DNA of 64,000 nucleotides from Phormidesmis sp. (GTDB taxonomy: Bacteria; Cyanobacteriota; Cyanobacteriia; Leptolyngbyales; Leptolyngbyaceae), in the NCBI GenBank assembly GCA_965248535.1, contig CBDFJR010000005.1, forward strand, positions 736,001 through 800,000. The letters are read 5' to 3'. A program made the translations under genes and the position numbers. Of this stretch, positions 19,201 through 42,113 are shown in pieces (the stretch's first letter is position 1; each line of letters opens with the position of its first letter). The notes under the pieces are model-generated. The model saw only the letters and a program-made list of their open reading frames with translations. It did not search any database and was not told the origin of the DNA.

Positions 19201-22200
19201 TGCTGAGATTCGATAAACTAGCTGTTAAAATCAGGGGTGCAGACCCGCTATCACCTTCATTTTGAATCGCATCTGCGATCGTAATCGTCGGTCGAGCATC
19301 ATCGTTTTGAATCGTTCCCGTCGCATTCACGGCAGCAGTCAGCGTGGCGTTAGTCGCCCCATTCAACGTCACGGTAAACGTTTCATCTGGCTCAAATTTA
19401 TTATCAGCCGTCACCGCAACGGCGATCGTCTGACTGGTCTGACCCGGCGCAAAGGTAACGCTAGCTGCGGCGGCGGGTGTGTAATCACTATCGGCGATCG
19501 TTGCCGTGCCGTCGGTGGTGCTATAAGTGACGACCACGTTTTGAGTGCTGGGCTGAGATAGGGTGACAATAAAGGGCAGCGGGGTGGCAGTCGCGCTCGT
19601 GCCTTCGAGCACCTTAACGGGGGTTGCATCTAGGCTTACAGTGGGTGCCACGACTGCTTTTGCCAGCGATAGCTCCGAGGTGTTGCCGCTAGCATCGGTG
19701 GCTGTGGCGGTGATCAACTGTCCGGCTGCTACGCCAGACGCGGTAAAGCTGAAGGTTGCGGTGCCGCTTGTGTCTGTGGTGACATCTTTGAAGCCCAGAA
19801 ACGTTTTGCCTTGAGCCGCTCCCGTCGCGTCGTTGCTAAAGAACTCAACTCGGAATGAAGTGGTCGGAGTGCTGTTGAGAGTGCCTCCGATCGCCGCTCC
19901 CGTTCCAACAGGTTCGGCGATCGTCAACACCGGAAAGTTTTGCAGATTGTTGGCTCCTACATCCAAATCGCCTGCATCGTTTGCCGTTGCGCCATCTTTG
20001 CCCAGATCAATGCCTAGCCCCGTGTTGCCCGTAAAGGTGTTGACTGAAATGCGGTTTCCGGTGACGGGGCCCACGATCGCGATGCCAGATCCTTTATTTG
20101 CCGAAAGGTCACCTTGCTGAATCGTGTTGTTGCCTTGGGTGTCGATCAAAATTCCGTCTTGGGCGAAGTTTTTGATTCCTAATCCTTTAATCGTGCTGCT
20201 CCCGGCGGTGATGTGTAAGCCGCTTGCAGTCGCTCCGGCAGCAGTGCCATCCAGGACAATGAACGGCGTAAAGGTGAATCCGGTTTGGGTCGTCGCATCG
20301 ATCGTTACTCCATCGCTGATGATTGGCAAGGCAGATTGCAGCGCGATCGTTTGCACGCCAGTTCCTGGAATGGCAAAGCTAATGGTGTTTGCCCCAGGGA
20401 ATGTGTTCGCGTTAATGATTGCCTGCCGAAGCGATCCCTCTCCGCTATCGTTTGTATTAATAACCGTGGTATCGTTCGCTAAAATTGTTGTCAGCGATGT
20501 GTTATCACTTGCGCTAATGGCATATCCCGAATTGGTTGCATCTGCTGTAATGGAGAGCTTTAACGTTTCGGCGGCTTCTGCCTGCACGTCGTCTCTAGGA
20601 GTCATCTTGAGATCGATCGTATCTGCCCCTGCTAAGAATTTTAGAACAATCTCAGTCGCAGAGAAACTCACGATCGTGGCCACTGTCGGGTCAACTGACC
20701 AATCATAATCCGTTGCAGAAGCGGTGCTGGTGGGGTCGATCGCCAGTTTGACACTCAATTCTCCCGTTTTGGTCGTGCGCTTAACTTGATAGACCGCCGG
20801 ATCGTTAGCAGGAGTGACCTCGCTGGCAGAAGCGTCGATCGCGGTCAGACTGACCACAGGCAGCAATTCTTGCCCAAACACATCAAATTTATTGTTGAAG
20901 TCACCTGCAACCAAATCACCCGCATCGCTCATAAAGGCAACATAACCGCCACTGCCACTGATCACCGGAACCTGAGACACTCCTTTGCCACTATCGGTGC
21001 CCGCGCTGTTGGTGCTGATCAGCGTCGTTTTGTTGAGTAGCAGATCTCGAACAAAAATATCTTGCGCGCCATTAGTGTCACTTGCCACGAGATTAGTAGA
21101 GTAGCTAACAAACGCTACAAACCGTCCGTCTTGGCTGAGTGAAGAACCCAAAGAGCCAGTGCCGCCAAATGCCCCTCCTGTCCCTGAGCCTATGCCGCTG
21201 CCTGTCCCATCTTTATCCACGCTGACTAAAATTGTTCGGCTTTTAGTCGGGTCATTCAGGTCAATTTCGCGAACAAACACATCCTGAGCTGCATTGTTGT
21301 CAGTGGCAACTAACGTATTAAAGGTGCTGGTAAACGCAACATACACCTTGCCGCCATAGCTGCTGATCACCGGACTCGACGCAAACGCCCCACTCGCAGG
21401 CGCGCCTCCGGTCACATTGCCATAGGCTCCCGACGCATCGACACTGACCGCCGCCGTCGTGTTCTTCACCAAATCGCGAATGAACACATCTTGAGCCGCA
21501 TTGCTATCGGTGCCAAACAGATTAGTTGCACCGCTCGTAAACGCAACATAGCGCCCATCGCCACTGATCACGGCGTTGTTGGAGTCTGCATTAGCGATCG
21601 TGCCTGCACTATCTCGGCTAATCAAGGTGAGCGGAGCCGTTTTGCGATCCCACAGAAAGACTTGTTTTTGGGCAGTTGTCGGCGCTGAAATTAAATTAGT
21701 GCCATCACTCGTAAAGGTGATCAACTGTCCATCATCGCTAATCGTCGCATTCTCAGAGGTGCCATCGCTGCTGTTGGTGCTCCCATTCGCGTGGCTGATC
21801 AGCGTAGTGGTTTTTGTCGATCGCTCCCAGACAAACACATCCTGTTTAGCGTTGCCATCCCCACTGACTAAGATTAGTTGCCAGACTGGTAAAGACCACA
21901 TATTGACCGTTGCCGCTAATGATCGGATTGATCGAAGCCCGATCGCCGCTCGTGGTGCCGCCGTTGACTTTGCTGATCAGGGTTAAGGTGTCGGGCTGCG
22001 ATCGCTCCCAGATAAACAGATCGGAGGCCCCATTGCTGTCACCAGTCACCAGATCAGAGGCATCACTCACAAAGACGACAAATTGACCATCTCGACTGAT
22101 CACCGGGCTAAAAGAATTGCCGTTGCCAGAAGCCTTCGCTGGATTGCGGCTGATCAACGTCACCGTTTTGGTCTGATTGTCGCGAATGAATACATCCTGA

Positions 22201-24524
22201 GCACTATTGGCATCATTAGCTGCTAACTCAGGAGCTTTGCTCACATAGACTACATAGCGACCATCCGCACTGACTGCATTGCCCGGTGTCAAGGTTGAGT
22301 CTTCACTCCCGGTCTTAGGCGTGAGCGTCGGATCGGTGCTCTGACGAGACACTAGGCTAATCGTCGCCCCGCTAGACTGGGCAATAAACACATCAGCCGC
22401 GCTATTGCCGTCGCGATCGACTAAATTGCTAGCCAGACTGGTGAACGCCACAAACGCCCCGTCTGCACTGATCGCTGATGTGAACACTGACGGACTGTTC
22501 GGATCGTCTGATGGAGAATCATTGTTGCCGATCGCGGTTGCACTGCGGCTAATTAAAGACGTAGTGCTGGCGGTTAGATCCCGCACAAACACATCGCGTT
22601 TGCCATTGGTGTCATTGGCAACTAGATTCGTGGCACTGCTGGCAAAACTAATGCGCTTGCCGTCTCCACTAATGGCAGGGTCAGACGAGGCATCATTGCC
22701 AAATGCCCCAGCGGTGTTGCCACTCACTAAAGAAGTGGTCAGTGTCGCAATTTCCCTGACAAACACATCTTGTTTGGCATTGCTGTCGATCGCGCTCACC
22801 AAATCTGTAGAGTAGCTGGTGAATGCAATAAATTTGCCGTCTCCGCTGATGAGGGGGTTGAGCGAACCACTGTCAGCAAACGGGCCACCTAGATTATTGC
22901 TGCTGTTTGTTCCGGCACTGTTGAAGCTGATTAAGCTGATTTTGTTGGCAGTCGTGCTGGCGCTATCCCACAAAAAGATATCTTGGGTGTTGTTGTTATC
23001 AATGCCATTGGCTATGAGATTAGTGGCCGTGCTGACAAATGCAACCCGACTACCATCGTTGCTAATCACCGGATTTCTCGATACATCATCTGCCCCGATC
23101 GTGGGGTCAAGCGAGGTGCTGATCACGTCCATTGTGTCCCCAACTCGACCCCAGCGAAACACGTCTTCGGTGGAGCCGTTAGGATCAGACGCAGTAGGAA
23201 CAAAATTAGTTGCGTTGCTGCTAAACACAACATAATTGCCATCCCGACTCATTGAGAATCCCGTCGAGACCCCTTTGTTGCCGCTGGCTGCCTTGGTGCG
23301 GTTGCGACTGACGAGCGTGACAGCATTACTGCTCGCTGACCCATCCCACTGAAAGACATCGGGCTGGTTGCCGCCATTGTTGTCAGCGAGAGCCGAGGTT
23401 AGGTTAGTCGCATCGCTCAAAAACGAGACATACTGCCCATTGTCACTGATGACAGGGTTATAGGAATCTCCATCTTGAACCGTGGTGGCATTGTTAGCAG
23501 CGCTCACGAGTCGAATTGTGTCGGTGCTGGTGGTGCCGTCCCATTTCCACACAAACACGTCTTTTTTAGCGTTTGTGTCACCCGAAACAATATCAGCCGC
23601 ATCACTCACAAACGCCACAGACAAGCCATCTCCACTGATCACAGCATTGGATGAAGCCCCGTTTGCGCTGCCCGTTTTACCGAGATTGTGGCTGACGAGT
23701 TTGAGAGTTGAAGTCTGACGATCGAGCCAAAATATATCTGATTTGCCATTTTTATCGTTAGCCACCACACTGCCCGAAGTGCTGGTGAAGATGATATAGC
23801 GTCCATCATTGCTCACCGAGCTAGCGCCCAAACTGCCGCCTGTGCTGTCACTGGTGCTCACCAAAGAGGAATCGATCGGAGACAGCAAATCAACAGGCAG
23901 CAAATGATGATAATTTGCCAAGGTAGACGCTTGAAAGACCAGACCTGCCGCAATCTCACCCGTGTGGACTTCTAAAGTCCAGTTGCCGCCAGCCGCCCGA
24001 TCGCCCGTTTGATCCGTCGATGCTGCAATATCTGCCCCCGTGATCTGCCCCAAACGCTGGACAAAACTAAGTCCCTGCTGACCTTGGGCAACATTGCACC
24101 CATAGAGCAAGATATCAGCGCCTTGCGTTAGCGCTTGCGACCATGATCTTAGCTGAGAGGCATAGCGATCGAGACTTTGCTCATTTAACTCAGTGGTGCC
24201 TAACTGCAAGCCGCCTGTCTCACCATGAGACACAATATGAAGACTAGAAATGCCGCTGCGCCCCAAAAGAGTGTGAGTAATCTGGGCAACAGCATCCTCG
24301 ATCGGGTTGAGAATGTGCACCTCAGTTCCAGCAGTCACCCCGGCCACTAAGCTCTGATAATCGGTGACGTTGGCCTCAATAAACAGCAGAGACGTAGCGG
24401 CACGAGCTTGGGCGAGAGTGGGCAGCGGGTTTGCCAAAGGGTTGCCAACCGCAGCTAGGGCAGACGCGCCAGCATCAGGCGACAACACAGAACGGTTTGA
24501 GGCAGATAACCCAGCAAATTCCAT
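13295..24524 (-). pseudogene. Giant surface/adhesin protein (DUF4347, PD40/TolB-like propeller repeats, beta-helix, 13 tandem Calx-beta, ~12 FG-GAP/VCBS blades) split by a +1 frameshift near 21870; pseudogene or assembly error
   Basis: ORFs 21846..24524 and 13295..21901 join into a repeat-consistent ...TSLATNLVSGDGNAKQDVF... if one base is removed from AATCTTAGTC. DUF4347 motifs LHIVSHG and ILLYGC, Calx-beta xxEG...TLTFxP...DE.F repeats, DFNxDGxxDxxWRN repeats. Confidence 0.85.
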
Positions 24525-25841: not shown

Positions 25842-28800
25842 ATGGCATCTACCCACAAGTCTCTCATTGCTTACTTAACGGTCTTAGGATCAGGAATCGG
25901 CCTTTGTAGTCAGCTTCATGCCCAGACCATTGTTCCCTCCCTAGATGGGGTGGGCACGTCTGTCTTGCAGAATGGCAACGTCTTCGACATTGAAGGAGGG
26001 GTGACATCTCGCAACGGCACAAATCTCTTTCACAGTTTTCAAAAGTTCGGTCTTGATATCAATCAAACGGCTAACTTCCGGTCTAACCCAAAGATTCAAA
26101 CCATTATTAGCCGAGATGTGGGGGGTATCCCCTCGCTGATTAACGGGCTGCTGCAAGTCACAGGCAGCAACGCCAATTTTTATTTCATTAACCCGGCGGG
26201 GATTATCTTAGGATCGAGCGCCCGGCTGAATGTGCCTGCTGCCTTTATGGCCACCACTGCTAACGGCATTGGCTTTGGCAACAACTGGTTTAATGCGATC
26301 GGGTCGAATGATTATCTATCTTTAGGGTCAGCCCCCAGCAGCTTTGCATTTACAATGCCTCAGCCAGGGGTGATCATCAATGCTGGTAACCTCACCGTGG
26401 GGTCAGGGCAACCACTCACCCTGTTAGGCGGGACGGTGATCAACACCGGACAACTCAGCGCTCCGGGTGGACAGATCACCATTGCGGCTGTTCCGGGTGA
26501 AAGCCTCGTGCGCGTCAGCCAGCCAGGTCGTTTATTAAGTCTAGAACTGCAATCTTTGACCGCTCCTTCTCCGCTTTCGGCGCTGCCATTTTCTCCTCTC
26601 TCTCTACCTCAGCTTTTGACGGGGGGCGGTGGAGGGCACGCAACGGGGATGGTGATCGACAATAACACCGTCAAGTTAGTCGGTTCTGGGGTGACGCTGC
26701 CCACAGCATCAGGGACGGCGATCGTGTCCGATCAAATCAATGTTTCAGGAGTCAAGGGGGGCACCGTTCAGGTTTTGGGAGATCGGGTCGCGCTGGTGAA
26801 TGCCACGATCGCCGCATCTGGAACCCAAGGCGGCGGAACGGTGCTGATCGGGGGCGATTATCAGGGCCGAGGCACAGTGCCCAAAGCAACTCTAACGAGT
26901 GTTGATGCCAACTCTACTATCAGCGCCAACGCTTGGCAGCAAGGGGATGGAGGGAAGATTGTTGTTTGGGCAGATGGCACCACCCGGTTTAATGGTCAGA
27001 TCGAGGCTCGTGGCGGTGCTCAGGCGGGCAATGGCGGGTTAGTCGAGGTTTCAGGCAAGGAACATTTGGACTTTAAGGGACAGGTTGACACCAGCGCCGC
27101 AAACGGAATCACAGGGCACCTTTTGCTAGATCCCCGCGATATCACGATCGTAGGGGGAAGTGGAGGAACACCCCCAGATGATCAAGAACTGCTCTCGACT
27201 GGGCAACTAGCTGGAACAAATGATTATGCCATTTCGCAAACCGCTCTAGAAACTCTAGCCGCCCGCACAACCTTCACATTGCAGGCAGACAATAACATTA
27301 CTATTCAAGCGTTGAGCAATAACACCCTCAACCTGTCCCAAACAACGGGCACCTTTGAGTTTATTGCCAAGAATACATTTTCGATGAATCCCAGCAACAC
27401 TCTCACTACTCAGGGAGCAGGCATTAAGATTCAGGCAGGCAATCAGGCGACGATCGGCGGCATCGAAGCGGGAGGCTCGATCGACCTAGTGAGCGATCGG
27501 CTAAATTTTTTGGGAGGGGTTGATTCGATTCGTCCCAAACGGGGGGTTTCTACCCAGATCAGCCTACGATCGGGTTCCCCTAATAGACTGGTCAGGCTAG
27601 AAGACAACAACAGTTCTACTGATAAAAATAATGAAGTTCTAGACATTCATGTCGGCGAACTGGCGGCAATTCAGCAACAAAATTTTACTCAGCTTGCGAT
27701 TCAAGGAGATGACATCGACATCACCAGAGATTTTCCGAGTGGAACCCCCATTTTTCCATTCCGAACCAAGCTGGTGCTAGAAGCGCGAAACGCGGTCACC
27801 ATTGACAACAGTATTATTCCTGGGCTAACAGTTCCCTCTCTGGTGATTAGGGCTAATAAGATTGTCTTGCCTAATGCTCCGGGAGTGATTCAATCTGGGT
27901 CTGTGACTCTGGGCGCTTCAGTCAACAGTCCCCAGACTAACATTGTTGTGGGGACACCCTCAGCAGAATCTTTGAAGGATCTGACGATTACCCAACAAAG
28001 TTTAGATGCTATTACGACTCCTGCGCTGCAATCTCTGACGTTTGAGACTGGGGGAAACATCACCGTTACCCAGCCTGTGACCACTAATGCTGCTCTCAAC
28101 TTCCAGCTTCAAGGCAATTTTACGCTGTTGCAACCAGCCTCAACAAACGGAGGCAATTTTTCCGTCAACACAACCGGAACCATTCAACTAGCAAGTCCTG
28201 TTCGCACCCAAGGGGGCACGATCGCGTTAAAGGGCGCTGCGCTAACAACAACCTTGTTAGATGCGAGTAATCTATCCGGTCAGGGCGGCGCGATTAATCT
28301 GCAAGCAGGCAGTGTGGTCACGGGAGATTTAAATAGCTCTGGGCAGCAGGGCGGAGCCATCACCGTGCAGGCTCCTACGGGCATTACGACTCAGGCGATT
28401 AATTCTAGCGGCTCGTTGTTGGGCGGTGGCGCAGTCAACTTGAGCACCCTGCGGGCGGTTGATGTGGGGTCAATTAACGCTCAAGGCGGGACTCAGGGGA
28501 GTGGTGGCGACATTGGCATAGACTTTGTGGATGCGCGGGGTGGCGACGCAGGCAAGGGTGGAACGGTGGATGTGACTACCAATGGGCGGTTTCGATCGCA
28601 GGGCAGTTTTTTGGTGAATGGAATTGATACTAGTATTGCGACAGGGGGCGGATTGGGGGGCGGAAACATTAAGATTCAGGTGGCAAAGAATCAGTTAAAT
28701 GTCCCGTTTACGGTGGGGGACTCGTCAATCAACGGCACCAAAGGCGCGCTTTCTACGGGCGCAGATAATGTGATTTTGCCCCGGCAGGTGATTTCAGGAG

Positions 28801-30392
28801 ATTTTACGCAGACAGGGCGATCGGGCACGATTCAAATCACGTCGGGCAGCAGGGTGCCCACCATTGAGCCAATACCAACCTTACCGACGACCCCATCAAC
28901 GATTCCATCGGGTGATTTATCTACCCTTCTGATTCCCAATCTAATTCCACCGTTGCCGCTTGCTTTGCCCGACGAAACTGTTCAACGACTGAGCGACATT
29001 CAGCGCACTCTGCAACAGTTAGAGATTGATAAGGGGATTCGACCAGCCCTGATCTATGTCAGTTTTTTGCCAATGCCCCTACAAGATGAACCCAGGCAAG
29101 CCAACAGACAAAAACAGCGCAATGCCATAGAAACTCAGTTTTTTTCCCAGAAGGCTCCCTTGGCGATTCCAGAGTATAGGCTTGAGGGTGAGCAAAAAGC
29201 CCCTCATTTAATCGGCTATCGTCAGTCTGAAGAGTATCAACCAGTCAATGAACCCAATCGATTGGAACTCTTGATGGTGACTAGCCAGAATGTCTACTCT
29301 CAACCCTTTTGTTTAGATAAGCAGGGGGCGGAGCAAAATTGTTCAGGCTATTTGGGTGATAGTCATGAAGCAGTGACGGAGAAAGTTCAAGAACTACAGG
29401 AATGCTTTATTAAACCTCAAGAAACAAAAGCAGCGAGTTGGAACTGTGCTCGCAGTGCGGCTAGACTGCTCTATAGGCGGTTATTAGCCCCGCTAGAGAG
29501 CAAAATTGAGGGCGATCGCATCGACAACATTGCCTTTGTGATGCCAGTGGGGTTGAGACAAATCCCGATCGCCGCGTTGCTCTATGACGATCAGCAGAGA
29601 AAAGAGCAGTCGATTTTAACTAAAAAATACAGCATTGGCTTTGTTCCTAGTATGACAGATACCCTAATTTGGCCAAAGCGAGGTATGCAGGAATCTAATC
29701 TGCTGGCATTGGGGGTCTCTAAATTTCACAAGAGAGCCACTGACCTGCCGGGAGTAGAGAAGGAGCTTAAACAAGTTAACGAGGCTTGGACAAAAGACCG
29801 TCTCCTCTCCCCTGCCGATCGTCAAGGGTTCTCTGGCAGCACGTCGGGTGGTCAGTTTGTCAACGGAGCAAGGGCAGCTACTGTGCCTAAGGTTCATCAG
29901 TTGCATGATGAGGAGGTTACGGCATTGCGCTGGCAACAGTCAAGACAAAGCGGGCAGTATCCCCTTGTTCATTTAGCAACCCATGCTCAGTTTGAACAGA
30001 CACAACCCGAAAATTCTCAGCTATGGTTTGGCGATCGGGCCCTAACATTCAAGGAATTTGAGATGGCTAGCCTGCATATCCCGCGCATCGACCTTTTAAT
30101 CTTGAGTGCTTGTTCTACGGCAACTAGTAGTGACACCAGCGCTGCGTTTGAGTATGGATTTGCAGGATTAGCCCATGAGTTAGGAGTCAAGTCGGTGTTA
30201 GCAAGTCTATGGCTCGCCAATGACCAACAAACTGGGGACAATTTAATGCCTCTTTTCTATAAAAACCTCCGTGACCCTGCAACTAGAACGAAAGCTGAAG
30301 CGCTGAGAAAAGCCCAACTCAGCCTTTATGAAGACCCAAACCTTGACCCTCGATATTGGGCTGGCTTTGTCATGGTGGGCAGCCCGTGGTAG
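25842..30392 (+). CDS. Filamentous-haemagglutinin (TPS) N-domain, Gly-rich beta-helix, C-terminal CHAT (caspase-like) domain
   Basis: Signal peptide; NLFHSFQKFGL and FINPAGI TPS motifs; CHAT VHLATHAQF (His) and LLILSAC (Cys); ends PRYWAGFVMVGSPW. Confidence 0.92.
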   Translation: MASTHKSLIAYLTVLGSGIGLCSQLHAQTIVPSLDGVGTSVLQNGNVFDIEGGVTSRNGTNLFHSFQKFGLDINQTANFRSNPKIQTIISRDVGGIPSLINGLLQVTGSNANFYFINPAGIILGSSARLNVPAAFMATTANGIGFGNNWFNAIGSNDYLSLGSAPSSFAFTMPQPGVIINAGNLTVGSGQPLTLLGGTVINTGQLSAPGGQITIAAVPGESLVRVSQPGRLLSLELQSLTAPSPLSALPFSPLSLPQLLTGGGGGHATGMVIDNNTVKLVGSGVTLPTASGTAIVSDQINVSGVKGGTVQVLGDRVALVNATIAASGTQGGGTVLIGGDYQGRGTVPKATLTSVDANSTISANAWQQGDGGKIVVWADGTTRFNGQIEARGGAQAGNGGLVEVSGKEHLDFKGQVDTSAANGITGHLLLDPRDITIVGGSGGTPPDDQELLSTGQLAGTNDYAISQTALETLAARTTFTLQADNNITIQALSNNTLNLSQTTGTFEFIAKNTFSMNPSNTLTTQGAGIKIQAGNQATIGGIEAGGSIDLVSDRLNFLGGVDSIRPKRGVSTQISLRSGSPNRLVRLEDNNSSTDKNNEVLDIHVGELAAIQQQNFTQLAIQGDDIDITRDFPSGTPIFPFRTKLVLEARNAVTIDNSIIPGLTVPSLVIRANKIVLPNAPGVIQSGSVTLGASVNSPQTNIVVGTPSAESLKDLTITQQSLDAITTPALQSLTFETGGNITVTQPVTTNAALNFQLQGNFTLLQPASTNGGNFSVNTTGTIQLASPVRTQGGTIALKGAALTTTLLDASNLSGQGGAINLQAGSVVTGDLNSSGQQGGAITVQAPTGITTQAINSSGSLLGGGAVNLSTLRAVDVGSINAQGGTQGSGGDIGIDFVDARGGDAGKGGTVDVTTNGRFRSQGSFLVNGIDTSIATGGGLGGGNIKIQVAKNQLNVPFTVGDSSINGTKGALSTGADNVILPRQVISGDFTQTGRSGTIQITSGSRVPTIEPIPTLPTTPSTIPSGDLSTLLIPNLIPPLPLALPDETVQRLSDIQRTLQQLEIDKGIRPALIYVSFLPMPLQDEPRQANRQKQRNAIETQFFSQKAPLAIPEYRLEGEQKAPHLIGYRQSEEYQPVNEPNRLELLMVTSQNVYSQPFCLDKQGAEQNCSGYLGDSHEAVTEKVQELQECFIKPQETKAASWNCARSAARLLYRRLLAPLESKIEGDRIDNIAFVMPVGLRQIPIAALLYDDQQRKEQSILTKKYSIGFVPSMTDTLIWPKRGMQESNLLALGVSKFHKRATDLPGVEKELKQVNEAWTKDRLLSPADRQGFSGSTSGGQFVNGARAATVPKVHQLHDEEVTALRWQQSRQSGQYPLVHLATHAQFEQTQPENSQLWFGDRALTFKEFEMASLHIPRIDLLILSACSTATSSDTSAAFEYGFAGLAHELGVKSVLASLWLANDQQTGDNLMPLFYKNLRDPATRTKAEALRKAQLSLYEDPNLDPRYWAGFVMVGSPW

Positions 30393-30397
30393 AGACA

Positions 30398-31141
30398 CTA
30401 TCGTTTTAGGTAAATCGTGCATTCTGGGTTGTTCCGAATGCGGTTGAGCTTATCGGTAAGGTCTGGTTTGGGCTGAGGTTCAGCAAACATCAGTTGAATC
30501 GCATCAGCCCGGAGGTTTCCTTCCATTGCCAAGTAACGCCAGTAGGCTTCTGAACTAGAGAACATGGCAGCAGATTTAGCAGGCTTTTCAACTACTTGAA
30601 ACGATCGCTCTAAAGACAACTCTATGGGTTTTTGACTAGGTTTGACATCTGCTTGGTTTTCATAAAAAACCTGTAGAGTATATTGTCCAACTGTTAAAGG
30701 TTGAACCTTTGACTGAGGAGACGCACCCGACCCATAGCGGATCTGCTGTTGATTAGGGTCAATATTAGCCTGCTCCCAAATGATTGATTTAGAATTTCTT
30801 TTTGTGGGTTGCAAAACCCGGACACGGGTGACAACTAGCCCAAATTTAGGTGGCTTGCTTGCGGCATCGATCACTAAATTCTTCCAAATAAACAGAGGGG
30901 TTTGACTAGATGTTTTATAAAGACTGGCATCTTCAGAGGAGGGCCAGAGCACGCAGAGAGGATCGCGAGAGCTACCAGAACCCTTAGAGCCAATCAACCA
31001 ATCCCAAAAAGAACCTGCTTGGGCGATCGCATCCCGCACTCCCACTTGATTTTTGTGAGTCGTGATCTCGATCGCGCCAATGCCCGCAGTCAATCCTAGA
31101 AAAAGCAGCCCGATCGCACACTTTTTAATCACTCGTTGCAT
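30398..31141 (-). CDS. Exported DUF928-like protein
   Basis: N-terminal hydrophobic signal, GSSRDPLCVLWP...TSSQTPLFIW pattern, and position next to a CHASE2 gene. Confidence 0.55.
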   Translation of the reverse strand: MQRVIKKCAIGLLFLGLTAGIGAIEITTHKNQVGVRDAIAQAGSFWDWLIGSKGSGSSRDPLCVLWPSSEDASLYKTSSQTPLFIWKNLVIDAASKPPKFGLVVTRVRVLQPTKRNSKSIIWEQANIDPNQQQIRYGSGASPQSKVQPLTVGQYTLQVFYENQADVKPSQKPIELSLERSFQVVEKPAKSAAMFSSSEAYWRYLAMEGNLRADAIQLMFAEPQPKPDLTDKLNRIRNNPECTIYLKR

Positions 31142-33701
31142 AACGTAGCCTCCGTTGATTTTGTATTTGTGATATCCACGGCCAGAGGGTCAACCCCACC
31201 ACAACTGAAGGGAAGATGATGGGTATTGCTAGTCCGCATAGACTATAGAGTTGCAGTGATCCTAAAACATAGGCTAAATATCCGATCGGTAGATTGTTAA
31301 GCCAGCGATCGCGCTTCTCTGGGCTACTCTGATCGAGTTGTGAATAAATCTCTTTAGAGACCCCAACAGCGAGAAGAATAAACAGTATTGGGTGAAGTGC
31401 CCAAATGAAATGACGATTTTTAATTTGATAGACCATGTAGGCATGGACAATACCCAGGGGGAAAATCTTGTCATCTGAACTCATTTGACACTGCGACTGC
31501 TTCTGTCCCAACCCTACTACTCCCCGAAAACTACACCAATAGCGCATCGCGGCCGGAAAAGATTCTTTGTCCTCTTTATCTTGCAAATCATAGCCACCGG
31601 GAATGATGATCACGATCTGATTCTTAATACCAGCCCTAAATTCTTGATCATCTAATTTTTCAGCTAAGTCTTTTGCTTTGACTTTGGTATATACCTGATC
31701 AGGCGATAAAGAAAAATCTAATAAGTTTTGTAGCCAAAAAGAAGACTGGCGATCGTGCAAAATAGCCTGTAGAGGCTGCCCCGAATCGGCATCTTTGGGC
31801 AACTTGTTCAATTGTATTGGTAGTCTGAGTTGCAAAGGACTAGAAGAAGAGCTAGAAGGAGTCAGTTTGTTGGCTTCTTGTTGAGTCATTTGCTGAACTA
31901 GCGTTAGCAAATAGGCAAAAGGCAGGGTTGATTTTGAGTCGGGTGGATTTTTATACTGTACATTCAGGGGATCTTGATCAGGTAGTTCTACTTGCCACGG
32001 CTGAAAATCAGTATTCCCTTGAAGTGTCTGGTTTGGGTTAGCCAGTTTAGAATGTGCGCCTAGGCTGCGAATACTACTTTGTGCAAATACAAGCCAAGTT
32101 TGCTTTTTAATGCTGTCTGATAGAGCCAAACGCAGTTGACGATCTTGCTCAGAAACAGGTTCGTTTAAGAGATAGTCAACACCAATCACTTTCGCTTGAG
32201 CTTGAGTCAGTTGGTTAATTAGCGTAGCGAGATAGCGCCGATCAATGGGGTTAGTGGTGAGAGATGGAAACTCTGCGGCGGCTGCGTTGAGCGAGTCTTG
32301 ATCGATAGACACTAGAAGCACTGGAGGCGACAGGGGGTTAGCAGGTTGATGAAGCCCCACCCTAGATCCAATATCTTGCGCGATCGCCTGCACCGCAGTG
32401 CGTCCGTTAAAGAGACGATTTTGCAAGGGTGCAATCAAACTGAGAACGGCTATCGTAGCCACTATTGCTGACTCACGTCGCGTCGGCTGCCACTTTTGTC
32501 TCTGTCGCTCTAGAAAACTCCGTTCTAACTGAAAAGGCAGTGCCTCAGGGTGGCGAAATTGAGCAGGAACTAGATAAGCAGAAGGATGATCAGCCCGTTT
32601 ATTTTCCAGGTGAGCACAAGCCCTGTTCATCGCCTCGTGTAGTGGACAATGATGGCGAAGGTGATGGCACAGGTGGTCTAAAAAATGGGTAGCCGCATCG
32701 ACATGAATAAGGTGCTTCATGGCGATCGCGTGACTCAAACCCAGATCTATTAGACTATGGGCAAAGTGATAGGTGTTGCATGAGATCAAGATGGCAACTT
32801 TCCAGCCATTGGCGATCGCGGCTTTAAACTCCTCTTGATATTGGTGAAAATGCATTCTTTCTTGAGCACCAAAATGAATGCAGCCACCTGTCAAAAATTC
32901 CTGTGCTCCGTGACCCGAAAACACCACAATGTCTGGCCCTTCTTTGAGCTTTTCTAGAAATTGTTGACGTAGCGCCTCAGGGGTTCCACACTCTTTTGAT
33001 GTCAGAGTTGTGACCTTTACCCCTCCTGCCTGAGCCAGCCTATTAACTAAATTTTCGTGTTTCAAAAACTTGGAGGCTTCCGGTTCATCTTTACTGTGGG
33101 CAATCACCTGTAAAACCCGAATGCTACCCCGCCGCTCAAGCGTTTGATCACCAGAGGTTTGCTGGCTGGTAAACCGATTTTCAACGGTTCTCCCTAAATA
33201 TATTCCCTCTTCAATCTTAAACGTGCGCCAAGGCAAGTGATGAACTATATCCCTCGGAGGACAATCACAAAATACTAAAACCTCAACAGGGGTCAAGAGA
33301 TCAGGCCCGATCTCTCGGCGGATCTCTCGAATAGCATTCCAAATTAAGTCTAGTTGGGGCTGGTTTAGCCACGCATGAAAGGCAGGAACTAGAGCGTTTT
33401 CAGCCTTTGTTATACCTGCATCATTGCTCGACTCATCATCGGGCTGATCAGTGTCAGGAGATAGCAAGGCAACCCGGTTTTGAGCCGTATTCCATGTGCT
33501 TTTATAATTCCTTTGCCAAGCGTCATCAGCGCCCTTTAAGTGATCCCATGCCCGTTTTCCGATCCCTGATGTTAATACATCTTGAATGATCGGACTGATA
33601 TTTCTAGTAGGATGCGTAACAATAAACTCATAGCGACCCTCACTGTCGGAGGAACGGCGAATTTGTAGGTGAATTGTAGGAATTTGATAGGATTGAACCA
33701 T
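31125..33701 (-). CDS. CHAT protease domain, TM, CHASE2 sensor domain, 3 C-terminal TM helices
   Basis: PDIVVFSGHG (His), AILISC (Cys); CHASE2 VLLVSIDQDSL...RRYLATLINQL...VIGVDYLL...GIVHA; hydrophobic C-terminus. Confidence 0.88.
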   Translation of the reverse strand: MVQSYQIPTIHLQIRRSSDSEGRYEFIVTHPTRNISPIIQDVLTSGIGKRAWDHLKGADDAWQRNYKSTWNTAQNRVALLSPDTDQPDDESSNDAGITKAENALVPAFHAWLNQPQLDLIWNAIREIRREIGPDLLTPVEVLVFCDCPPRDIVHHLPWRTFKIEEGIYLGRTVENRFTSQQTSGDQTLERRGSIRVLQVIAHSKDEPEASKFLKHENLVNRLAQAGGVKVTTLTSKECGTPEALRQQFLEKLKEGPDIVVFSGHGAQEFLTGGCIHFGAQERMHFHQYQEEFKAAIANGWKVAILISCNTYHFAHSLIDLGLSHAIAMKHLIHVDAATHFLDHLCHHLRHHCPLHEAMNRACAHLENKRADHPSAYLVPAQFRHPEALPFQLERSFLERQRQKWQPTRRESAIVATIAVLSLIAPLQNRLFNGRTAVQAIAQDIGSRVGLHQPANPLSPPVLLVSIDQDSLNAAAAEFPSLTTNPIDRRYLATLINQLTQAQAKVIGVDYLLNEPVSEQDRQLRLALSDSIKKQTWLVFAQSSIRSLGAHSKLANPNQTLQGNTDFQPWQVELPDQDPLNVQYKNPPDSKSTLPFAYLLTLVQQMTQQEANKLTPSSSSSSPLQLRLPIQLNKLPKDADSGQPLQAILHDRQSSFWLQNLLDFSLSPDQVYTKVKAKDLAEKLDDQEFRAGIKNQIVIIIPGGYDLQDKEDKESFPAAMRYWCSFRGVVGLGQKQSQCQMSSDDKIFPLGIVHAYMVYQIKNRHFIWALHPILFILLAVGVSKEIYSQLDQSSPEKRDRWLNNLPIGYLAYVLGSLQLYSLCGLAIPIIFPSVVVGLTLWPWISQIQNQRRLRYATSD

Positions 33702-33800
33702 AACTAAATAGATCTTTGAACTAGATTAAAGGGCCGTTGCCCCATGTCTCCAACGATTGAAGAGATAGAGCAACAGCAGCACCCTGGAGTTTAGATAGGT

Positions 33801-34952
33801 TCAAAATATAAGTTGTGGTAGCTTTTCTTGAAACCCATCAAACGCGATCGTCACCTCCAGTTGATCACCCGGTAGAGGGTGGATGAGTTTAGTTTCATTG
33901 GTAAACAACTCTTGACCCGGCTTGGTCAATTCCTTGTCTAACAGCACCTCGTTAGAGTTAGTTCGTTTCACCTCTAGGCGTAAACCCCGATTGCTGGGCA
34001 ACAGATCGTCATAGCGATCGCGCACCAACAGCAAGAGTGTCCACGCTCCTTCAGAACACCAGGTTGCAATCATCAACTCAAACAATTGCCCATCTAGATG
34101 AACATCTTTGCACAGAGCACGCGCCTCTGAGGGAACACCTAGGGTTTTCTTAAGGTGAATTAACCTAGACTCAAAGCCACCCGCCATCGCACCCGCCAAC
34201 ACAAATGGACGATCGCTAATGCCCGCTTGATAGTGTTCTTCCAACAATCGTCGATTGTTTATTAAGTCGGGCATATTGATCGCACGAGTGCGAGGCATTG
34301 CCGACTTCCACCAATTTTGGTAGGAAGGAAACTCTTCTAAGGCAAAGCATTCATCCAAGTCAAACGTTTGAGTCTCAGGTGTTTCTTCGCATTGAGAAAT
34401 GCCCGATCGGTAGAGCATCACATAGTTAGACAACTTAGCAAACCCTGGAATTTGGACATAATCTAAACGATCGCCAAACACCACCGGAAAGCACCCCATG
34501 CGATGAGCCAATAGCTCAGAACTCAGAGAATACTGGCTTTCTCCGGGCAACACTGGGCGGCATTCAACTCTCTCTTGCACCCCCGACAGATATAGATCCG
34601 CCGCCATTCCCGTCCGACGAGACAGAGCATCCCAACTATCACTCCGTTCTAGATCTGACTCAATCTCGATCCAGTTCAAATAAGAATGAACTGCATACAC
34701 GGCGAGAGTATTCAAATAGACTTGTCGCTTGATTTTCAGATCAGATTGCTCGGCTGCAAAGGCACGGGCATAGGTGTGGGCATCAAGACCAAGGGGCACT
34801 TGAATCGCGTTGGGTAAAGAGGGAAGATTAGTAGACATTGTGAACTTCGGACTCTCCTGTTTTATAGGTTGGGTGGTTTCTTCTGCGTTCGTAAGCGGAT
34901 GGACTGAATTATCTTTGGTTGAATGGTTTTCAACCCGATCGTGCGTTCCCAT
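33801..34952 (-). CDS. DUF1822 family protein
   Basis: ARAFAAEQ...RQVYLNTLAVYAVHSYL.W...SDSWD...ADLYL...VECRPVLPGE signature. Confidence 0.85.
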   Translation of the reverse strand: MGTHDRVENHSTKDNSVHPLTNAEETTQPIKQESPKFTMSTNLPSLPNAIQVPLGLDAHTYARAFAAEQSDLKIKRQVYLNTLAVYAVHSYLNWIEIESDLERSDSWDALSRRTGMAADLYLSGVQERVECRPVLPGESQYSLSSELLAHRMGCFPVVFGDRLDYVQIPGFAKLSNYVMLYRSGISQCEETPETQTFDLDECFALEEFPSYQNWWKSAMPRTRAINMPDLINNRRLLEEHYQAGISDRPFVLAGAMAGGFESRLIHLKKTLGVPSEARALCKDVHLDGQLFELMIATWCSEGAWTLLLLVRDRYDDLLPSNRGLRLEVKRTNSNEVLLDKELTKPGQELFTNETKLIHPLPGDQLEVTIAFDGFQEKLPQLIF

Positions 34953-34998
34953 GAGATTACCTTGAACTCAACAGATTGAAGTCAGAATCATCAGAACA

Positions 34999-35712
34999 TT
35001 AGTCTTCTCCCTCAGGTTTGTAGCCCAGTTCCCGCAGGATGTCGCGCAGGAGGGGCTTACATTTCTTTTCCCAATGAGAGTAGAGAGTTTGTTCATTAAT
35101 TCCAAATTCACGGCTAATAGTACGAAGTTGTTTTTGAGGAAAATACAACAGCACTTGCTGACAGAGAGCTTGGGCATTGCATTCGGGGTAGCGACGGGGA
35201 TGGCAGGCCTGTAACCTACCTTCCGGGTCAGTTGCCACATAGCCTTCAAACCGGGCAAACAGTCGCTGAACTGCTTCATGATTGTCCTGCAACAACAGTG
35301 CATCCAGTCCTTCTAGGGTCGGAGCTTGCCAGCCTGTTTCCCCGGTTTGTTCTAGATAGGTCTCAGAGTCATGATCTCTTCCCATTACCTGGTCAAGGCT
35401 GTAGGTAGAGTTAGAAACCGTCCGCAGATCTTTGAGTCGCCAACTGAGGTGGTTGTTGATCCAACGAAAAAAGGTGGTTTCTAAGTCTTCGCTGGGCTTT
35501 GCTTGAAACTCATGCAAATGCCGCAGTAGCCATTCATAAGTTCGGTTGAGGGCTTCTAGATAGTTGGGGTGAGTGGAAGGGAGCAACAGGGATGATCGCT
35601 GCACATAGCGCAGTAGCCGATTGCGATCGCGAGAGGTGAGTGAGTTTGTCTGTTGTTCTTCACAGGCCTCAGAAATCAAGCATTCAAGCGGCTTATTAGA
35701 AGTGGAAGTCAT
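34999..35712 (-). CDS. Divergent sigma-70/ECF-like factor of the cyanobacterial DUF1822-associated type
   Basis: Region-2-like NYLEALNRTYEWLLRHL...FRWINNHLSWRLKDL, then DPEGRLQACH...PECNAQAL, and C-terminal HTH LRTISREFGINEQTLYSHW. Confidence 0.75.
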   Translation of the reverse strand: MTSTSNKPLECLISEACEEQQTNSLTSRDRNRLLRYVQRSSLLLPSTHPNYLEALNRTYEWLLRHLHEFQAKPSEDLETTFFRWINNHLSWRLKDLRTVSNSTYSLDQVMGRDHDSETYLEQTGETGWQAPTLEGLDALLLQDNHEAVQRLFARFEGYVATDPEGRLQACHPRRYPECNAQALCQQVLLYFPQKQLRTISREFGINEQTLYSHWEKKCKPLLRDILRELGYKPEGED

Positions 35713-35849
35713 AAGTTAGCTCCAGAATCACTCAGCGTCATCCAGACGATTAGGGTCATTGTCAAGGTCGTGGGCCAAAGGCTCTGAAGGCACCTCGTCT
35801 GAGGTTTGAGCAGGAGCAGAGCGATCCCGCTCAAACGATTCTGATACAT
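35709..35849 (-). CDS. Possible 46-aa small ORF (MYQNRLSGIALLLLKP...), not in the ORF track
   Basis: AGGAGG 9 nt upstream of the ATG; the stop overlaps the sigma start codon (ATGA). Confidence 0.35.
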   Translation of the reverse strand: MYQNRLSGIALLLLKPQTRCLQSLWPTTLTMTLIVWMTLSDSGANL

Positions 35850-35850
35850 A

Positions 35851-36836
35851 TCAATTATCCTCCTCTAAATTGGGGTTGAGTTGCGTTAGAAAATGTGAGT
35901 CTAGAAGATCTGTGAGAAAGGGCGAGTTTTGCAAAGCCTGCGGAACGAAAGGAAGGTTTTGCAGTTCTTCAGACACCAAGGCGTTGAACCAGTCAACCAA
36001 CTGGTGTTGCGGAAAATCTCTAGACAGGGAGATGCCGCAGATTTCTCGCAGTGCCCGATCGAAGGCTCGTTTTTGAGCCGTTTGATAGTTAGCCCCAGAG
36101 TATTTGTTCACCCCAACCAAGTGCTGGATGGCATGCACCAATCGGGCACCGCACCTAGAGCGATCGCCGGGGGACGATCTGCAAAAGGTGTGAACAAGCT
36201 GGAGTAACTCGGTGTCGGTAAGCTGACTTTTTTTTTGAGCACAAAGGCAGACGGGTCTAACCCGACCAGTTCTACCGCATTGCGCCCGGCTTGATAGGCG
36301 ACTTCGATGCCCCGTGGGTCATTTCCTAGCCAGGTGTAAAACCCAGCAGAAAACTTAGTGGCAACGCGATCGCTAATCGCATCTTGAGTGCCAATCACAT
36401 AGTTAATAGATTGACAAATCGCAATGGCTTGCACCTCCGAATAACACGCATTGAGAACTACACATTGCACATAGCGACTCGCTAACGCAAACAGATTTGC
36501 CAACGCATTCGACTGAATGAACTGACGATTATCAATGCGATAGTCATCGACTGTGATCAGGTGTTTTTCAATCTCACTCTCAAACACTAGCCCTGCCTCA
36601 CCCCCGCCGTGGCCAATAAAGTGGACAATCTGTGGCTTCTCTTTTGCCAGAGCAAACTGCAAATCTTCAGCATTGACTGCCCAGTAGGTTTTATAGGTAA
36701 ATCGATGTGAGTGTTGGCAGGCATTGAGCACAGTTTCAATCTTGCGGGCTTCGACATCTAGGTCTAGCGGTGAACTACCTTTGGGGTTCGCTGCTAGAAG
36801 CAGAATGTGAATTTTGGGTTCAGTCTGGTCAGCCAT
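35851..36836 (-). CDS. CHAT domain protein with a C-terminal sigma-region-2-like domain, out of frame at an A9 tract (36228-36236)
   Basis: CHAT: ILLLAANP, PQIVHFIGHG, CVVLNACYS. One added A joins ORF 36108..36836 to the frame of 35851..36141 (328 aa), whose product resembles the N-half of the adjacent sigma-like protein. Confidence 0.75.
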
Positions 36837-36946
36837 CGGGTTTTTGACTCCGATTGAGTGTCTTATTAGGTAATCAGTGTGAGGAGACGGTTGTTATGAC
36901 GTTCTCTCCCTAAATCTTGGTAAAGAAGTGTAACGATGAAGGGCTG

Positions 36947-37084
36947 ATACCAATTTGATTTGTGAATGCGACAGATCCGCACGAGGGCACGGCAGTGCCA
37001 TGCCCGTACAAAAAGCGTAGGGGCATGGCATGCCGTGCCCCGTCGGATTGAACGATCAGTCGCAATTGCATCCGAAATTGGTAT
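36947..37084. repeat. MITE-like element with a pair of inverted GTAG-type REP palindromes
   Basis: Terminal inverted repeats ATACCAATTT / AAATTGGTAT enclose GGGCACGGCAGTGCCATGCCCGTAC and GTAGGGGCATGGCATGCCGTGCCC. Confidence 0.75.
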
Positions 37085-37289
37085 GACCCAATTTCATAAC
37101 TCAAACATTTTGAACTGATTACCTATTAAGAGAGTTATTTAGCTGAACGTTGTTCATAAATTTTATCTCTCTCAAGCTGTGAAAATCTGAGCGTTATAGA
37201 AGGCTAGAGTTGAGGTGCATCAATGCTTTGCTCAAGCCAAGGTGAGGAGGAATTTCGATTAATTTTAGCCTTCATCAGGAGTTGTAAAC

Positions 37290-37760
37290 ATGTCTTCCCT
37301 CAGCAACCCAAAACATTCATCTCGCTCTCAAACTAAAGTCTTGCCTGACTCTGTTAGCGATCGCGACACTCCCCTCTCTGCCGAAGACTATCAGACGGTC
37401 GCTATGCTGACGACTCTCCAGTATAAGGAGATCCTGCGGCGGCTTGGGGCCCTCGAACAAGCCAGTCATCGAGCACAGGTTGAAGAAGACTTACCTCGCT
37501 ACAGACACTTTCGTGACCCTGTGAATGAGCGCACAAAATATAGCCCGATCGTTAGAATCGCGTTTAAGGCGCTGACGGTTTTGTTCTGGTCGTTCGCAGG
37601 ATTTGCGCTGGCCTATGTGCTTTCAGTGGGGCTTCATGCGCCGCATTTTGTCTTAGACACGTTGCAAGATCTCGCGTCTGACTGGTTGTTGCCTTTAGCA
37701 GCGCTGACGTTGTGCACGATCGCGATCGCGGCATTACACGAGTCGTTGAAAAGTAGCTGA
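37290..37760 (+). CDS. Hypothetical membrane protein
   Basis: AGGAG RBS; two C-terminal hydrophobic helices. Confidence 0.7.
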   Translation: MSSLSNPKHSSRSQTKVLPDSVSDRDTPLSAEDYQTVAMLTTLQYKEILRRLGALEQASHRAQVEEDLPRYRHFRDPVNERTKYSPIVRIAFKALTVLFWSFAGFALAYVLSVGLHAPHFVLDTLQDLASDWLLPLAALTLCTIAIAALHESLKSS

Positions 37761-40689: not shown

Positions 40690-42113
40690 CAGAGTCGGCG
40701 GGAATTCCCCCACCTCTTGTAATGGAGCAACAGCGAAGCGAGGTGCGGAATGGAAAAGGTGGGGGATGAAAGCCAGGGCGATGTAGCGAAGCGGAATCGC
40801 CAATGTCTTAGACCTCAACCCAAAAGATTTATCAACGCTCCTTACTATTGTTGCTAGTTTGCAGTAAAGTAGAGGAATGAAACACGCGGTCAAGGTACGA
40901 ATTTATCCCACTGACGAGCAGAAAGAGGCGCTTTCAAAGGCGTTTGGTTGTGCCCGTTGGTTTTGGAATAACTCGTTAGCTGAGACGAATCGACTCTACA
41001 AAGAAGCGGGAAAAGGCTTATCTCAAGTTGGGATGAACAGTCGGCTACCTGCACTCAAGAAAGAGTTTGAATGGTTGACAGAGCCTTATAGCCAAGTGCT
41101 GCAAAGCGTGTCTCTAAACCTATCAAGAGCGTTTATCAACTTCTTTGACGGGCGGGCTCAATTCCCTAACTTCAAATCGAAGCACGGCAAGCAATCGATT
41201 CAGTATCCTCAGAGCGTCAAGATGACGGATGAAGGGTTGAAACTTCCGAAGCTGGGAGTGATCAAGGCTAAAATTCATCGCGTGTTTGAAGGGAAGCTGA
41301 AAACTGTAACGGTTTCTCTCACGACCTCTGGCAAGTATTTTGCATCATTGCTGTTTGATGATGGACTGCCAGAGATTGAGGGATCTGGAGTAGGAAAAGC
41401 AGTCGGGATTGATTTAGGTCTAACCCATTTTGCGATTACATCCGACGGCTCTAAGTTTGACAATCCGAGGGTGTTAAAGAAGCATTCTCGCAACCTCAAA
41501 CGCAAACAGCAAAAACTTTCTCGCAAACAAAAGGGGTCAAGCAACCGGAAAAAGGCACGTCGCCTTGTGGCACGGGTTCACGAAAGAATTGCGAACGTGA
41601 GAAAAGACTTTCTGCATAAGCTCTCGCGCAAAATGGTCAACGAAAACCAAGTGATCTGCGTTGAGAATCTGGCAGTCAAGAACATGGTGAAAAATCACAA
41701 CTTAGCCAAAGCAATCAGCGATGCCAGTTGGTCGGAGTTCACCAGAATGCTTAGTTATAAAGCAGGGCAGGATGGAAAGATCTATCAAGAAGTTGACCGA
41801 TTTTTCCCGTCCTCAAAGACCTGCTCAGTCTGCCTCAATCGAGTGGGTAGCCTCGCACTGGAGATCCGGTCATGGCAGTGTCAAAACTGCGCTACGAAGC
41901 ATGACCGAGACGTGAATGCTGCTATCAATATTCGAGATGAAGGTCTACGAATCTTGGCGTTAGGAACTAGCGCTACTGCCAATGGAGGGAAGGTAAGTCC
42001 GAAGGTTGGACGGCGTAAGTCATCCGTATCTGAGGCTCTTCCCGTTGAAATTGGAAGCCCCCACTCAACGACCGAAGCGCGTAGCGCGTAGGAAGTCAGT
42101 GGGGGTAGTTCAC
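40690..42113 (+). mobile_element. IS200/IS605-family element, tnpB only (non-autonomous, IS1341-like)
   Basis: Left-end hairpin TCCCCCACCT/AGGTGGGGGA (40706-40766); right-end hairpin CCCCCACT/AGTGGGGG followed by TAGTTCAC (ends 42113); no tnpA. Left boundary inferred just after TTTAA. Confidence 0.85.
40877..42091 (+). CDS. tnpB: RNA-guided endonuclease TnpB
   Basis: RIYPTDEQ N-terminus, RuvC GIDLG / VENL / DRDVNAA, Zn ribbon CSVC...CQNC. Confidence 0.96.
   Translation: MKHAVKVRIYPTDEQKEALSKAFGCARWFWNNSLAETNRLYKEAGKGLSQVGMNSRLPALKKEFEWLTEPYSQVLQSVSLNLSRAFINFFDGRAQFPNFKSKHGKQSIQYPQSVKMTDEGLKLPKLGVIKAKIHRVFEGKLKTVTVSLTTSGKYFASLLFDDGLPEIEGSGVGKAVGIDLGLTHFAITSDGSKFDNPRVLKKHSRNLKRKQQKLSRKQKGSSNRKKARRLVARVHERIANVRKDFLHKLSRKMVNENQVICVENLAVKNMVKNHNLAKAISDASWSEFTRMLSYKAGQDGKIYQEVDRFFPSSKTCSVCLNRVGSLALEIRSWQCQNCATKHDRDVNAAINIRDEGLRILALGTSATANGGKVSPKVGRRKSSVSEALPVEIGSPHSTTEARSA

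Follow-up and report, generated by a model that had tools for sequence, protein, structure and literature searches.

The CHAT-sigma locus and its genes

The window analysed here is a 64,000 nucleotide (nt) stretch of DNA from Phormidesmis sp. (assembly GCA_965248535.1, contig CBDFJR010000005.1, positions 736,001 to 800,000 of the forward strand). Positions 25842–37760 carry three genes with CHAT (caspase-fold protease) domains, together with genes for a sigma factor, a DUF1822 protein and a DUF928-like protein. The first gene of the minus-strand operon is followed by a sigma2-like sequence in another frame behind a run of nine A residues (A9). The core of this module has already been catalogued computationally (PMC8195603). 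The frame change, a promoter-like motif and a nuclease-like DUF1822 fold go beyond the first-pass annotation of this DNA. The features are as follows, where TM denotes transmembrane, ECF extracytoplasmic function and HMM hidden Markov model.

25842–30392, plus strand: two-partner secretion (TPS, FHA-like) exoprotein with a C-terminal CHAT domain, 1516 aa (Pfam, TIGR01901), predicted to be exported; optional neighbour of the module
30398–31141, minus strand: divergent DUF928-like protein, 247 aa (ESM Atlas, hhalign), hydrophobic N-terminus, predicted to be exported
31125–33701, minus strand: EACC2-like domain, CHAT (H264, C308), TM, CHASE2 and C-terminal TM segments, 858 aa (Pfam, hydropathy)
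33801–34952, minus strand: DUF1822 protein with a predicted PD-(D/E)xK-like N-domain, linker and beta-sandwich C-domain; a candidate both for inhibiting sigma and for being cut by CHAT (Pfam, model)
34999–35712, minus strand: short ECF-like sigma factor, 237 aa, predicted sigma2 and sigma4 (model, Foldseek, structure alignment)
35851–36227, minus strand: duplicate of sigma2 only, in the -1 frame with respect to the CHAT ORF before it (open frame, sigma HMM)
36228–36236, minus strand: A9 run where the CHAT and sigma2 frames meet, a candidate site of transcriptional slippage
36108–36836, minus strand: small CHAT (about 200 aa), predicted to be cytoplasmic, followed by a tail of 39 aa that stays in the CHAT frame (Pfam)
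36873–36899, minus strand: promoter-like motif in two parts, TCATAA-N16-CTGAT(TAC), upstream of the operon
37094–37119, plus strand: second motif copy, TCATAA-N15-CTGATTAC, facing a divergent 156-aa gene (37290–37760)

The six open reading frames (ORFs) have the strands and coordinates given to them in the first-pass annotation, and a gap of 5 bp (30393–30397) separates the convergent TPS-CHAT and DUF928-like genes. Pfam analysis of each ORF confirmed TPS plus CHAT, CHAT plus CHASE2, DUF1822 and the small CHAT (E 3.5e-8). The His and Cys motifs that had been listed, THA/SAC, GHG/ISC and GHG/NAC, are all found in the translations of the three CHAT proteins.

The protein at 31125–33701 has a CHAT domain at residues 149–372 (E 1.7e-10) and a CHASE2 domain at 439–761 (E 7.8e-17). 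It had been described as CHAT-TM-CHASE2-3TM. One hydropathy segment is present before CHASE2 as proposed, but the three windows after it include two that overlap. These segments were taken from hydropathy rather than from a dedicated TM or signal-peptide predictor. The CHAT domain is located ahead of the first TM segment, which predicts a place in the cytoplasm; the same is predicted for the small CHAT. The His/Cys dyad is invariant in 60 of 60 membrane-type CHAT domains among the matches listed in the alignment, and the domain from the window aligns with a HetF-like protein of the same genome with an hhalign probability of 99.5%. CHAT and CHASE2 with TM helices represent the layout of EACC2-caspase proteins, i.e., a caspase domain followed by a variable sensor, and the neighbouring ECF sigma and DUF1822 genes of such systems are also present (PMC8195603). 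The N-domain matches an HMM of the paralogous N-domain with E 2.4e-6, but the hhalign probability is only 6.7%; the name EACC2 is based on the architecture, and the domain is termed EACC2-like here.

The sigma factor ORF has no Pfam or NCBIfam match, and TIGR02937 is matched by 4 of 18 of its homologues though not by this protein. The sigma fold that had been proposed for it is borne out by a structural model (pLDDT 76) at middling Z scores of 7–8. Residues 6–106 align with sigma2 of the ECF factor SigW (Z 7.9, rmsd 3.7, 87 aligned residues) and residues 140–233 with sigma4 of sigma L (Z 7.3, rmsd 3.0, 75 aligned). The best Foldseek match is sigma L (E 6.7e-3); Foldseek gave nothing at E ≤ 0.001, and a PDB sequence search using the sigma profile gave 0 matches. 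The scores are middling, yet the top structural rows are all sigma factors and both halves of the protein are covered, and the model thus points to an ECF-like sigma factor with sigma2 and sigma4 only.

Linkage of these genes is conserved, in agreement with the first-pass annotation. The survey consisted of 40 sigma neighbourhoods from 39 genomes, mostly the top match per genome by rank (three matches on short contigs were skipped and two closer loci were added), with genes annotated by HMMs seeded from proteins of the window's own genome. DUF1822 is directly after the sigma gene in 38 of 40 loci. A gene coding for the N-domain and CHAT lies close by in 36 of 40 loci and includes CHASE2 in 26 of 40; DUF928 is found in 24 of 40 and a TPS gene in 6 of 39. 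In the closer sigma subfamily (73 loci, where each denominator counts the loci that extend far enough to include the gene), the corresponding counts are 70/72 for DUF1822, 43/62 for the N-domain with CHAT, 19/62 for CHASE2, 20/62 for DUF928 and 14/48 for TPS. The sigma profile matches 73 of 151 sampled genomes of the class. With this query the sigma was not found in seven genomes of the same genus, and the GC content of the 30–38 kb region is 45–49% compared with about 50% genome-wide; together these suggest a patchy, mobile module.

The TPS-CHAT protein has a TPS domain at residues 39–229 (E 2e-35) and a CHAT domain at residues 1206–1514 (E 5.5e-49). With this secretion domain, and with two ShlB genes at other places in the genome, its CHAT domain would be exported, out of reach of DUF1822. 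A cascade of three proteases onto DUF1822, as first proposed, is therefore unlikely, and the low TPS counts mark TPS-CHAT as an optional companion of these genes. It would act outside the cell and be dispensable for the switch described below. A motif count in TPS-type CHAT domains (His 20/39, Cys 18/39) mixed partial and unrelated matches and was set aside. The ORF called DUF928-like has no Pfam match and does not reach the PF06051 cut-off, but its top ESM Atlas match is DUF928 (0.90, 206 of 256 features in common) and it has a weak hhalign match to this family (probability 43%, E 2.5e-4, 36 columns). Its residues 4–22 form a hydrophobic stretch.

A second copy of the module is present in the same genome (C5, about 2366100–2373000; L001:6138–12983). 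It consists of a 404-aa sigma factor that passes the TIGR02937 cut-off, DUF1822, CHAT-CHASE2, DUF928 and a divergent CHAT; TPS genes and a ShlB gene (C5:2388245) are close to it. More DUF1822 copies are found at C2:1301794–1302892, where the gene is broken into two parts and follows a long sigma gene, and at C5:2354312–2354896.

The A9 run and the sigma2-only frame

The lead gene had been read as a CHAT protein with a sigma2-like part. The CHAT domain is in 36108–36836, but the sigma2-like part is outside this ORF, in another frame. Past the residues VLKKK the CHAT frame continues for 39 residues to a stop, the sigma2-only duplicate continues in the -1 frame, and the switch is on the A9 run. 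In annotation the gene is divided between a CHAT ORF and one called 'hypothetical'. The sigma2-only frame matches the sigma HMM (E 2.3e-6); the ESM Atlas gave DUF29 matches alone for it, at 0.83 or less. Database relatives with 84% and 73% identity retain the same out-of-frame tail. A separate sigma2 ORF, P0169, has 66% identity and is probably on the same contig as the relative with 73% identity. An in-frame TGA at 35851–35853 cuts about 40 acidic residues off the sigma2 frame, and P0169 reads through the corresponding stretch.

An assembly error at the A9 run was considered and rejected. Contigs from two sequencing runs, X1 (covering 33759–36973) and X2 (35871–36506), are gap-free here, where both runs belong to a single study and either could be the source, and two relatives keep the tail.

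DNA is available for seven CHAT-sigma2 loci, and five of them have exactly nine A residues at the junction: the window (-1), L075, L077 and L223 (+1) and L258 (in frame). CHAT identities across these five are 51–75%, while the run length is constant at nine and the frame is determined by the flanking bases. In L076 and L096 the CHAT and sigma2 are in frame with no A run, and P0031, known as a protein only, is another in-frame fusion. A conserved homopolymer of at least 8 nt at a frame transition, with shifts of mixed direction (-1, +1 and 0), is thus seen here; such mixed shifts at poly-A are taken as a sign of transcriptional rather than ribosomal recoding in PMC3711429, which also cites the A9 of Thermus dnaX. 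Runs of at least nine A or T residues number 6 per 5.03 Mb in the window's genome, one of them being this A9. One is within 2317 long ORFs and none is at 74 KKK sites; 50 such runs occur in 2.04 Mb of fetched loci. The first ATG, GTG or TTG in the sigma2 frame is 86 nt past the run in the window and 185 nt past it in L223, i.e., after the conserved first helix.

Programmed transcriptional slippage at the A9 run is the explanation we lean towards, with some reserve, on these sequence comparisons. The lead gene would then yield mostly plain CHAT and, where one A is inserted in the mRNA, a minority of a CHAT-sigma2 fusion. Substitutions in the tail also favour the shifted frame, in which 13 of 23 distinct ones are silent against an expected fraction of 0.29–0.37 (p 0.005–0.045; CHAT-domain figures are 7/26 and 9/48). 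This substitution test has two relatives only, reconstructs minimal changes from protein sequences and is marginal under transition bias. Two observations weigh against slippage. Related CHAT domains end in KKK in 23 of 176 cases, which means that A runs form there easily. In L075 and L077 a TTG or GTG is only 23–26 nt past the run, and translation could restart at it. No hairpin after the A9 is consistent among loci (-5.5 to -13.3 kcal/mol, values without a shuffle control).

The KKK count and the alternative starts would also fit a replication-slippage hotspot that arises from Lys-Lys-Lys coding, where the out-of-frame loci would represent phase variation, fusions in decay or translationally coupled genes and no recoding is programmed. 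Junctions between CHAT and a full sigma gene carry A runs too, and that of L078 (A8) is in frame. Others give this explanation some further weight: after A9 in L253 and L254 the CHAT stop overlaps the sigma start, and L079 has A8 with a CHAT relic containing stops. Stand-alone sigma2 ORFs form 12 clusters, some from Dolichospermum, Aphanizomenon and Coleofasciculus. We consider a hotspot doubtful, although it is a serious competitor: the run is nine in all five loci with the frame fixed by its flanks, the shift is kept at 84% and 73% identity, the window and L223 have no standard start before the first helix, and there is the silent-site bias in the shifted frame.

Few cases of the CHAT-sigma2 arrangement came from the genomes sampled. 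Each hunt covered at most 30 loci among the matches listed. Within these, none was found beyond the window's own genome from 401 genomes of the class and 90 of the order, one came from 401 genomes of another order and one from 389 genomes of a heterocyst-forming family, and no more were found from families of 52 and 20 genomes. The L096 operon (CHAT-sigma2, sigma, DUF1822 and CHAT, with the promoter-like motif) is on a contig titled Flammeovirgaceae, which represents either transfer or mis-binning.

DUF1822, the promoter-like motif and a proposed circuit

The DUF1822 protein is matched by Pfam with E 4.8e-25. A model of its last 345 aa (pLDDT 82) displays an alpha/beta N-domain, a low-confidence linker at 210–219 and a beta-sandwich. 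The N-domain is most similar to the endonuclease I-Ssp6803I (Z 8.5, rmsd 3.5, 118 aa aligned), followed by Hjc-type resolvases (Z 8.0 and 7.5) and DpnI (Z 6.3). The model thus gives a PD-(D/E)xK nuclease-like fold plus a beta-sandwich, and not the tetratricopeptide repeats (TPRs) with which the family is labelled in PMC8195603. Residues D81, E92 and C93 (model numbering) are invariant across 38 DUF1822 sequences, but the position after E-C, the Lys place of PD-(D/E)xK, varies. Foldseek gave nothing at E ≤ 0.001 with this model.

This fold opens a rival explanation in which DUF1822 is a nuclease effector or a DNA-binding co-activator, and CHAT removes the beta-sandwich and switches on defence or cell death beside the sigma response. 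The N-domain matches and the invariant D81 and E92 fit such a role, and the system is grouped with counter-invader systems in PMC8195603. We regard it as unlikely, in view of the variable Lys position, the middling Z scores, the Foldseek result and the fixed place of DUF1822 directly behind sigma. A gene directly behind a sigma gene is typical of sigma/anti-sigma pairs.

A hydrophobic-Arg-small motif, which resembles the site at which PatU3 is cut, is present in 25 of 38 DUF1822 linkers (shuffled mean 7.6, maximum 16), where the motif was picked post hoc, once the alignment had been seen.

Upstream of the CHAT-sigma2 genes, the sequence TCAT(A/C)A-N14-16-CTGAT is found at 7 of 7 loci. A looser pattern is upstream of 31 of 110 sigma loci (shuffle mean 1.1, maximum 4), but about 22 of these 31 are from related Nostoc-type genomes and the motif was noticed by eye before counting, which reduces the weight of the count. 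The two copies in the window are back to back; that at 36873–36899 faces the operon and that at 37094–37119 faces the 156-aa gene. The latter is the second-best site of the genome when the matrix is built without the window sites. In the regulon scan a single local site stood out, followed by a tail of weak ones, with the minus-strand site, which has the longer spacer, outside the top 25. No exact motif is upstream of TPS-CHAT. The natural reading of the motif is ECF autoregulation, in which this sigma factor would recognize it.

Between the two motifs is a short element (36945–37085) whose read depth is very high and whose two borders both show loose ends, hence a multicopy repeat. The 156-aa gene (37290–37760, plus strand) has two hydrophobic C-terminal segments by eye and no Pfam match above cut-off; it is a candidate regulon member. 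A weak motif match (C2:519001) is upstream of a 572-aa gene, the start of which we take to resemble a contractile tail sheath protein.

The genes, frames and predicted folds can be placed in one circuit, from which we infer binding, cleavage, slippage and a decoy role. CHASE2, perhaps with the exported DUF928-like protein, would sense an outside signal. The cytoplasmic CHAT would become activated and cleave DUF1822 in the interdomain linker, by analogy to HetF and PatU3 (see below). The freed sigma would transcribe from TCATAA-N15/16-CTGAT, i.e., its own operon and the divergent gene. That the membrane CHAT cuts DUF1822 and frees the ECF-like sigma in this EACC2-caspase module, and that the lead gene yields two proteases via slippage on A9, is a tentative proposal which we place just short of an even call. 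The sigma2 copy, more speculatively, may be a sigma mimic that binds DUF1822 and either brings the protease to it or titrates it in a metered feedback loop. A fuller scheme in which slippage on the conserved A9 sets the ratio of plain protease to sigma2-decoy protease, and the decoy homes on DUF1822 as a nuclease-fold sigma inhibitor within a self-promoting membrane-to-sigma circuit, appears improbable when taken as a whole.

Further points count against cleavage of DUF1822 as a sigma inhibitor. The linker of the window's own DUF1822 has no hydrophobic-Arg-small motif. The modelled nuclease-like N-domain, with two invariant acidic residues, would suit an inhibitor and, equally, an effector that acts on DNA. 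Since the sigma and DUF1822 have no profile homology to HetZ-like and PatU-like proteins, the HetF precedent is an analogy. The membrane CHAT could also process itself or the sigma directly, as in the autopeptidase model of Kaur et al., with DUF1822 as a scaffold. That model was put forward in section 9 of PMC8195603, and it agrees with the autoproteolysis raised for DdvA (PMC11506125) and with fusions of CHAT to full sigma (L078, P0021). It is set against HetF, the one tested cyanobacterial CHAT in the literature consulted, which cuts a separate inhibitor, and against the Arg linker, which is conserved across most DUF1822 proteins; we consider it very doubtful and prefer cleavage of DUF1822.

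Three other regions of the window were noted. ORFs of 2868 and 892 aa overlap at 13295–21901 and 21846–24524 (minus strand), the second with DUF4347 and PD40 repeats; the pair resembles one giant exoprotein that a change of frame close to 21850–21900 has divided. At 50089–53569 (minus strand) an AAA ATPase gene adjoins a subtilase gene in a low-GC stretch, an arrangement reminiscent of toxin-antitoxin or defence pairs of the IetAS type. The 404-aa ORF at 40877–42091 (plus strand) is, by eye, what we take to be a TnpB/IS605-like protein.

Comparison with known systems

The closest known systems are the EACC2-caspase proteins with variable sensors, including CHASE2, that are encoded beside ECF sigma and DUF1822 (PMC8195603, a computational study of 2021). 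Autopeptidase activation with a transcriptional output was proposed for them, as a prediction only. The first-pass annotation knew of no mechanism described for the module; section 9 of that paper already describes the neighbourhood and proposes a caspase-triggered sigma output. The N-terminal constant domain, CHAT and a variable sensor (CHASE2, TM segments) next to sigma and DUF1822 are common to both. Section 9 and the supplement matches contain neither a CHAT-sigma2 gene upstream nor a frameshift or promoter motif. The term DUF928 has 0 matches in the supplements searched; CHASE2 beside DUF928 has been noted elsewhere (PMC5587647). No description of the CHAT-sigma2 gene, its frameshift, the motif or the DUF1822 fold came up in the literature searched, which held few subscription papers and excluded the GeneTack cluster supplements; nor did a bench study of the module.

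The proposed order of CHAT, anti-sigma and sigma has a proven cyanobacterial precedent. In Anabaena PCC 7120 the CHAT domain of HetF cuts PatU3 after Arg117 (PMC9457339), and PatU3 inhibits sigma-HetZ (PMC13342950). Common to HetF and the window's protein are a homologous CHAT domain, predicted here to be cytoplasmic and membrane-anchored as in HetF, and independence from CRISPR; the HetF target is a sigma inhibitor. HetF has periplasmic TPRs, whereas the membrane CHAT of the window has CHASE2 instead. No locus protein matches NF045509 (HetF). Identity of the short sigma with HetZ (hhalign E 0.17) and of DUF1822 with PatU (E 0.2–0.43) is not supported, where the PatU label in this genome rests on position behind an NF037964 gene. 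The genome has hetZ/patU-like genes (C2:228002–230182), a second HetZ-related gene (C5:1757846–1758949) and a hetF-like gene (C5:234983–237661), all below family cut-offs. The presence of the sigma in nearly half of the class genomes sampled gives the module a wider meaning, and its motif, candidate linker and DUF1822 fold make it testable in the E. coli reconstitution used for sigma-HetZ.

In type III-E CRISPR systems the CHAT protease Csx29 cleaves the sigma inhibitor Csx30, which relieves CASP-sigma, and sigma motifs are in the system's own locus (PMC10028731). The CHAT-to-sigma-inhibitor arrangement proposed here and the motifs in the own locus are similar, but the trigger there is Cas7-11 target RNA. 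The module had been proposed to be CRISPR-independent, and this agrees with the absence of a CRISPR-like repeat array from 15000–50000 and of Cas matches among the locus proteins scanned, to which the Cas search was confined. No Csx30-type match is in the NCBIfam or fold results for the locus.

A transmembrane CHAT protein, DdvA, controls the ECF sigma DdvS in Myxococcus xanthus (PMC11506125). DdvA is itself the anti-sigma and its CHAT domain is periplasmic with an incomplete active site, whereas the window's CHAT is predicted to be cytoplasmic and has the full dyad. A different type of sigma mimicry is found in PhyR-NepR, where a sigma-like domain with no promoter function titrates the anti-sigma and PhyR is switched by phosphorylation. 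The putative mimic in the window differs in that it is sigma2 only and is fused to a protease.

The A9 run has its counterparts in Thermus dnaX and in IS630/DDE transposases, with which it would share long and short products with one N-terminus, and shares mixed shifts among homologues (PMC3711429). Cases of programmed slippage in the literature consulted are mainly transposases and dnaX. The candidate slippage described here differs from these in that it would meter a signalling protease and, if true, such metering of a protease-sigma mimic would make recoding one of the ways in which bacterial signalling is tuned.

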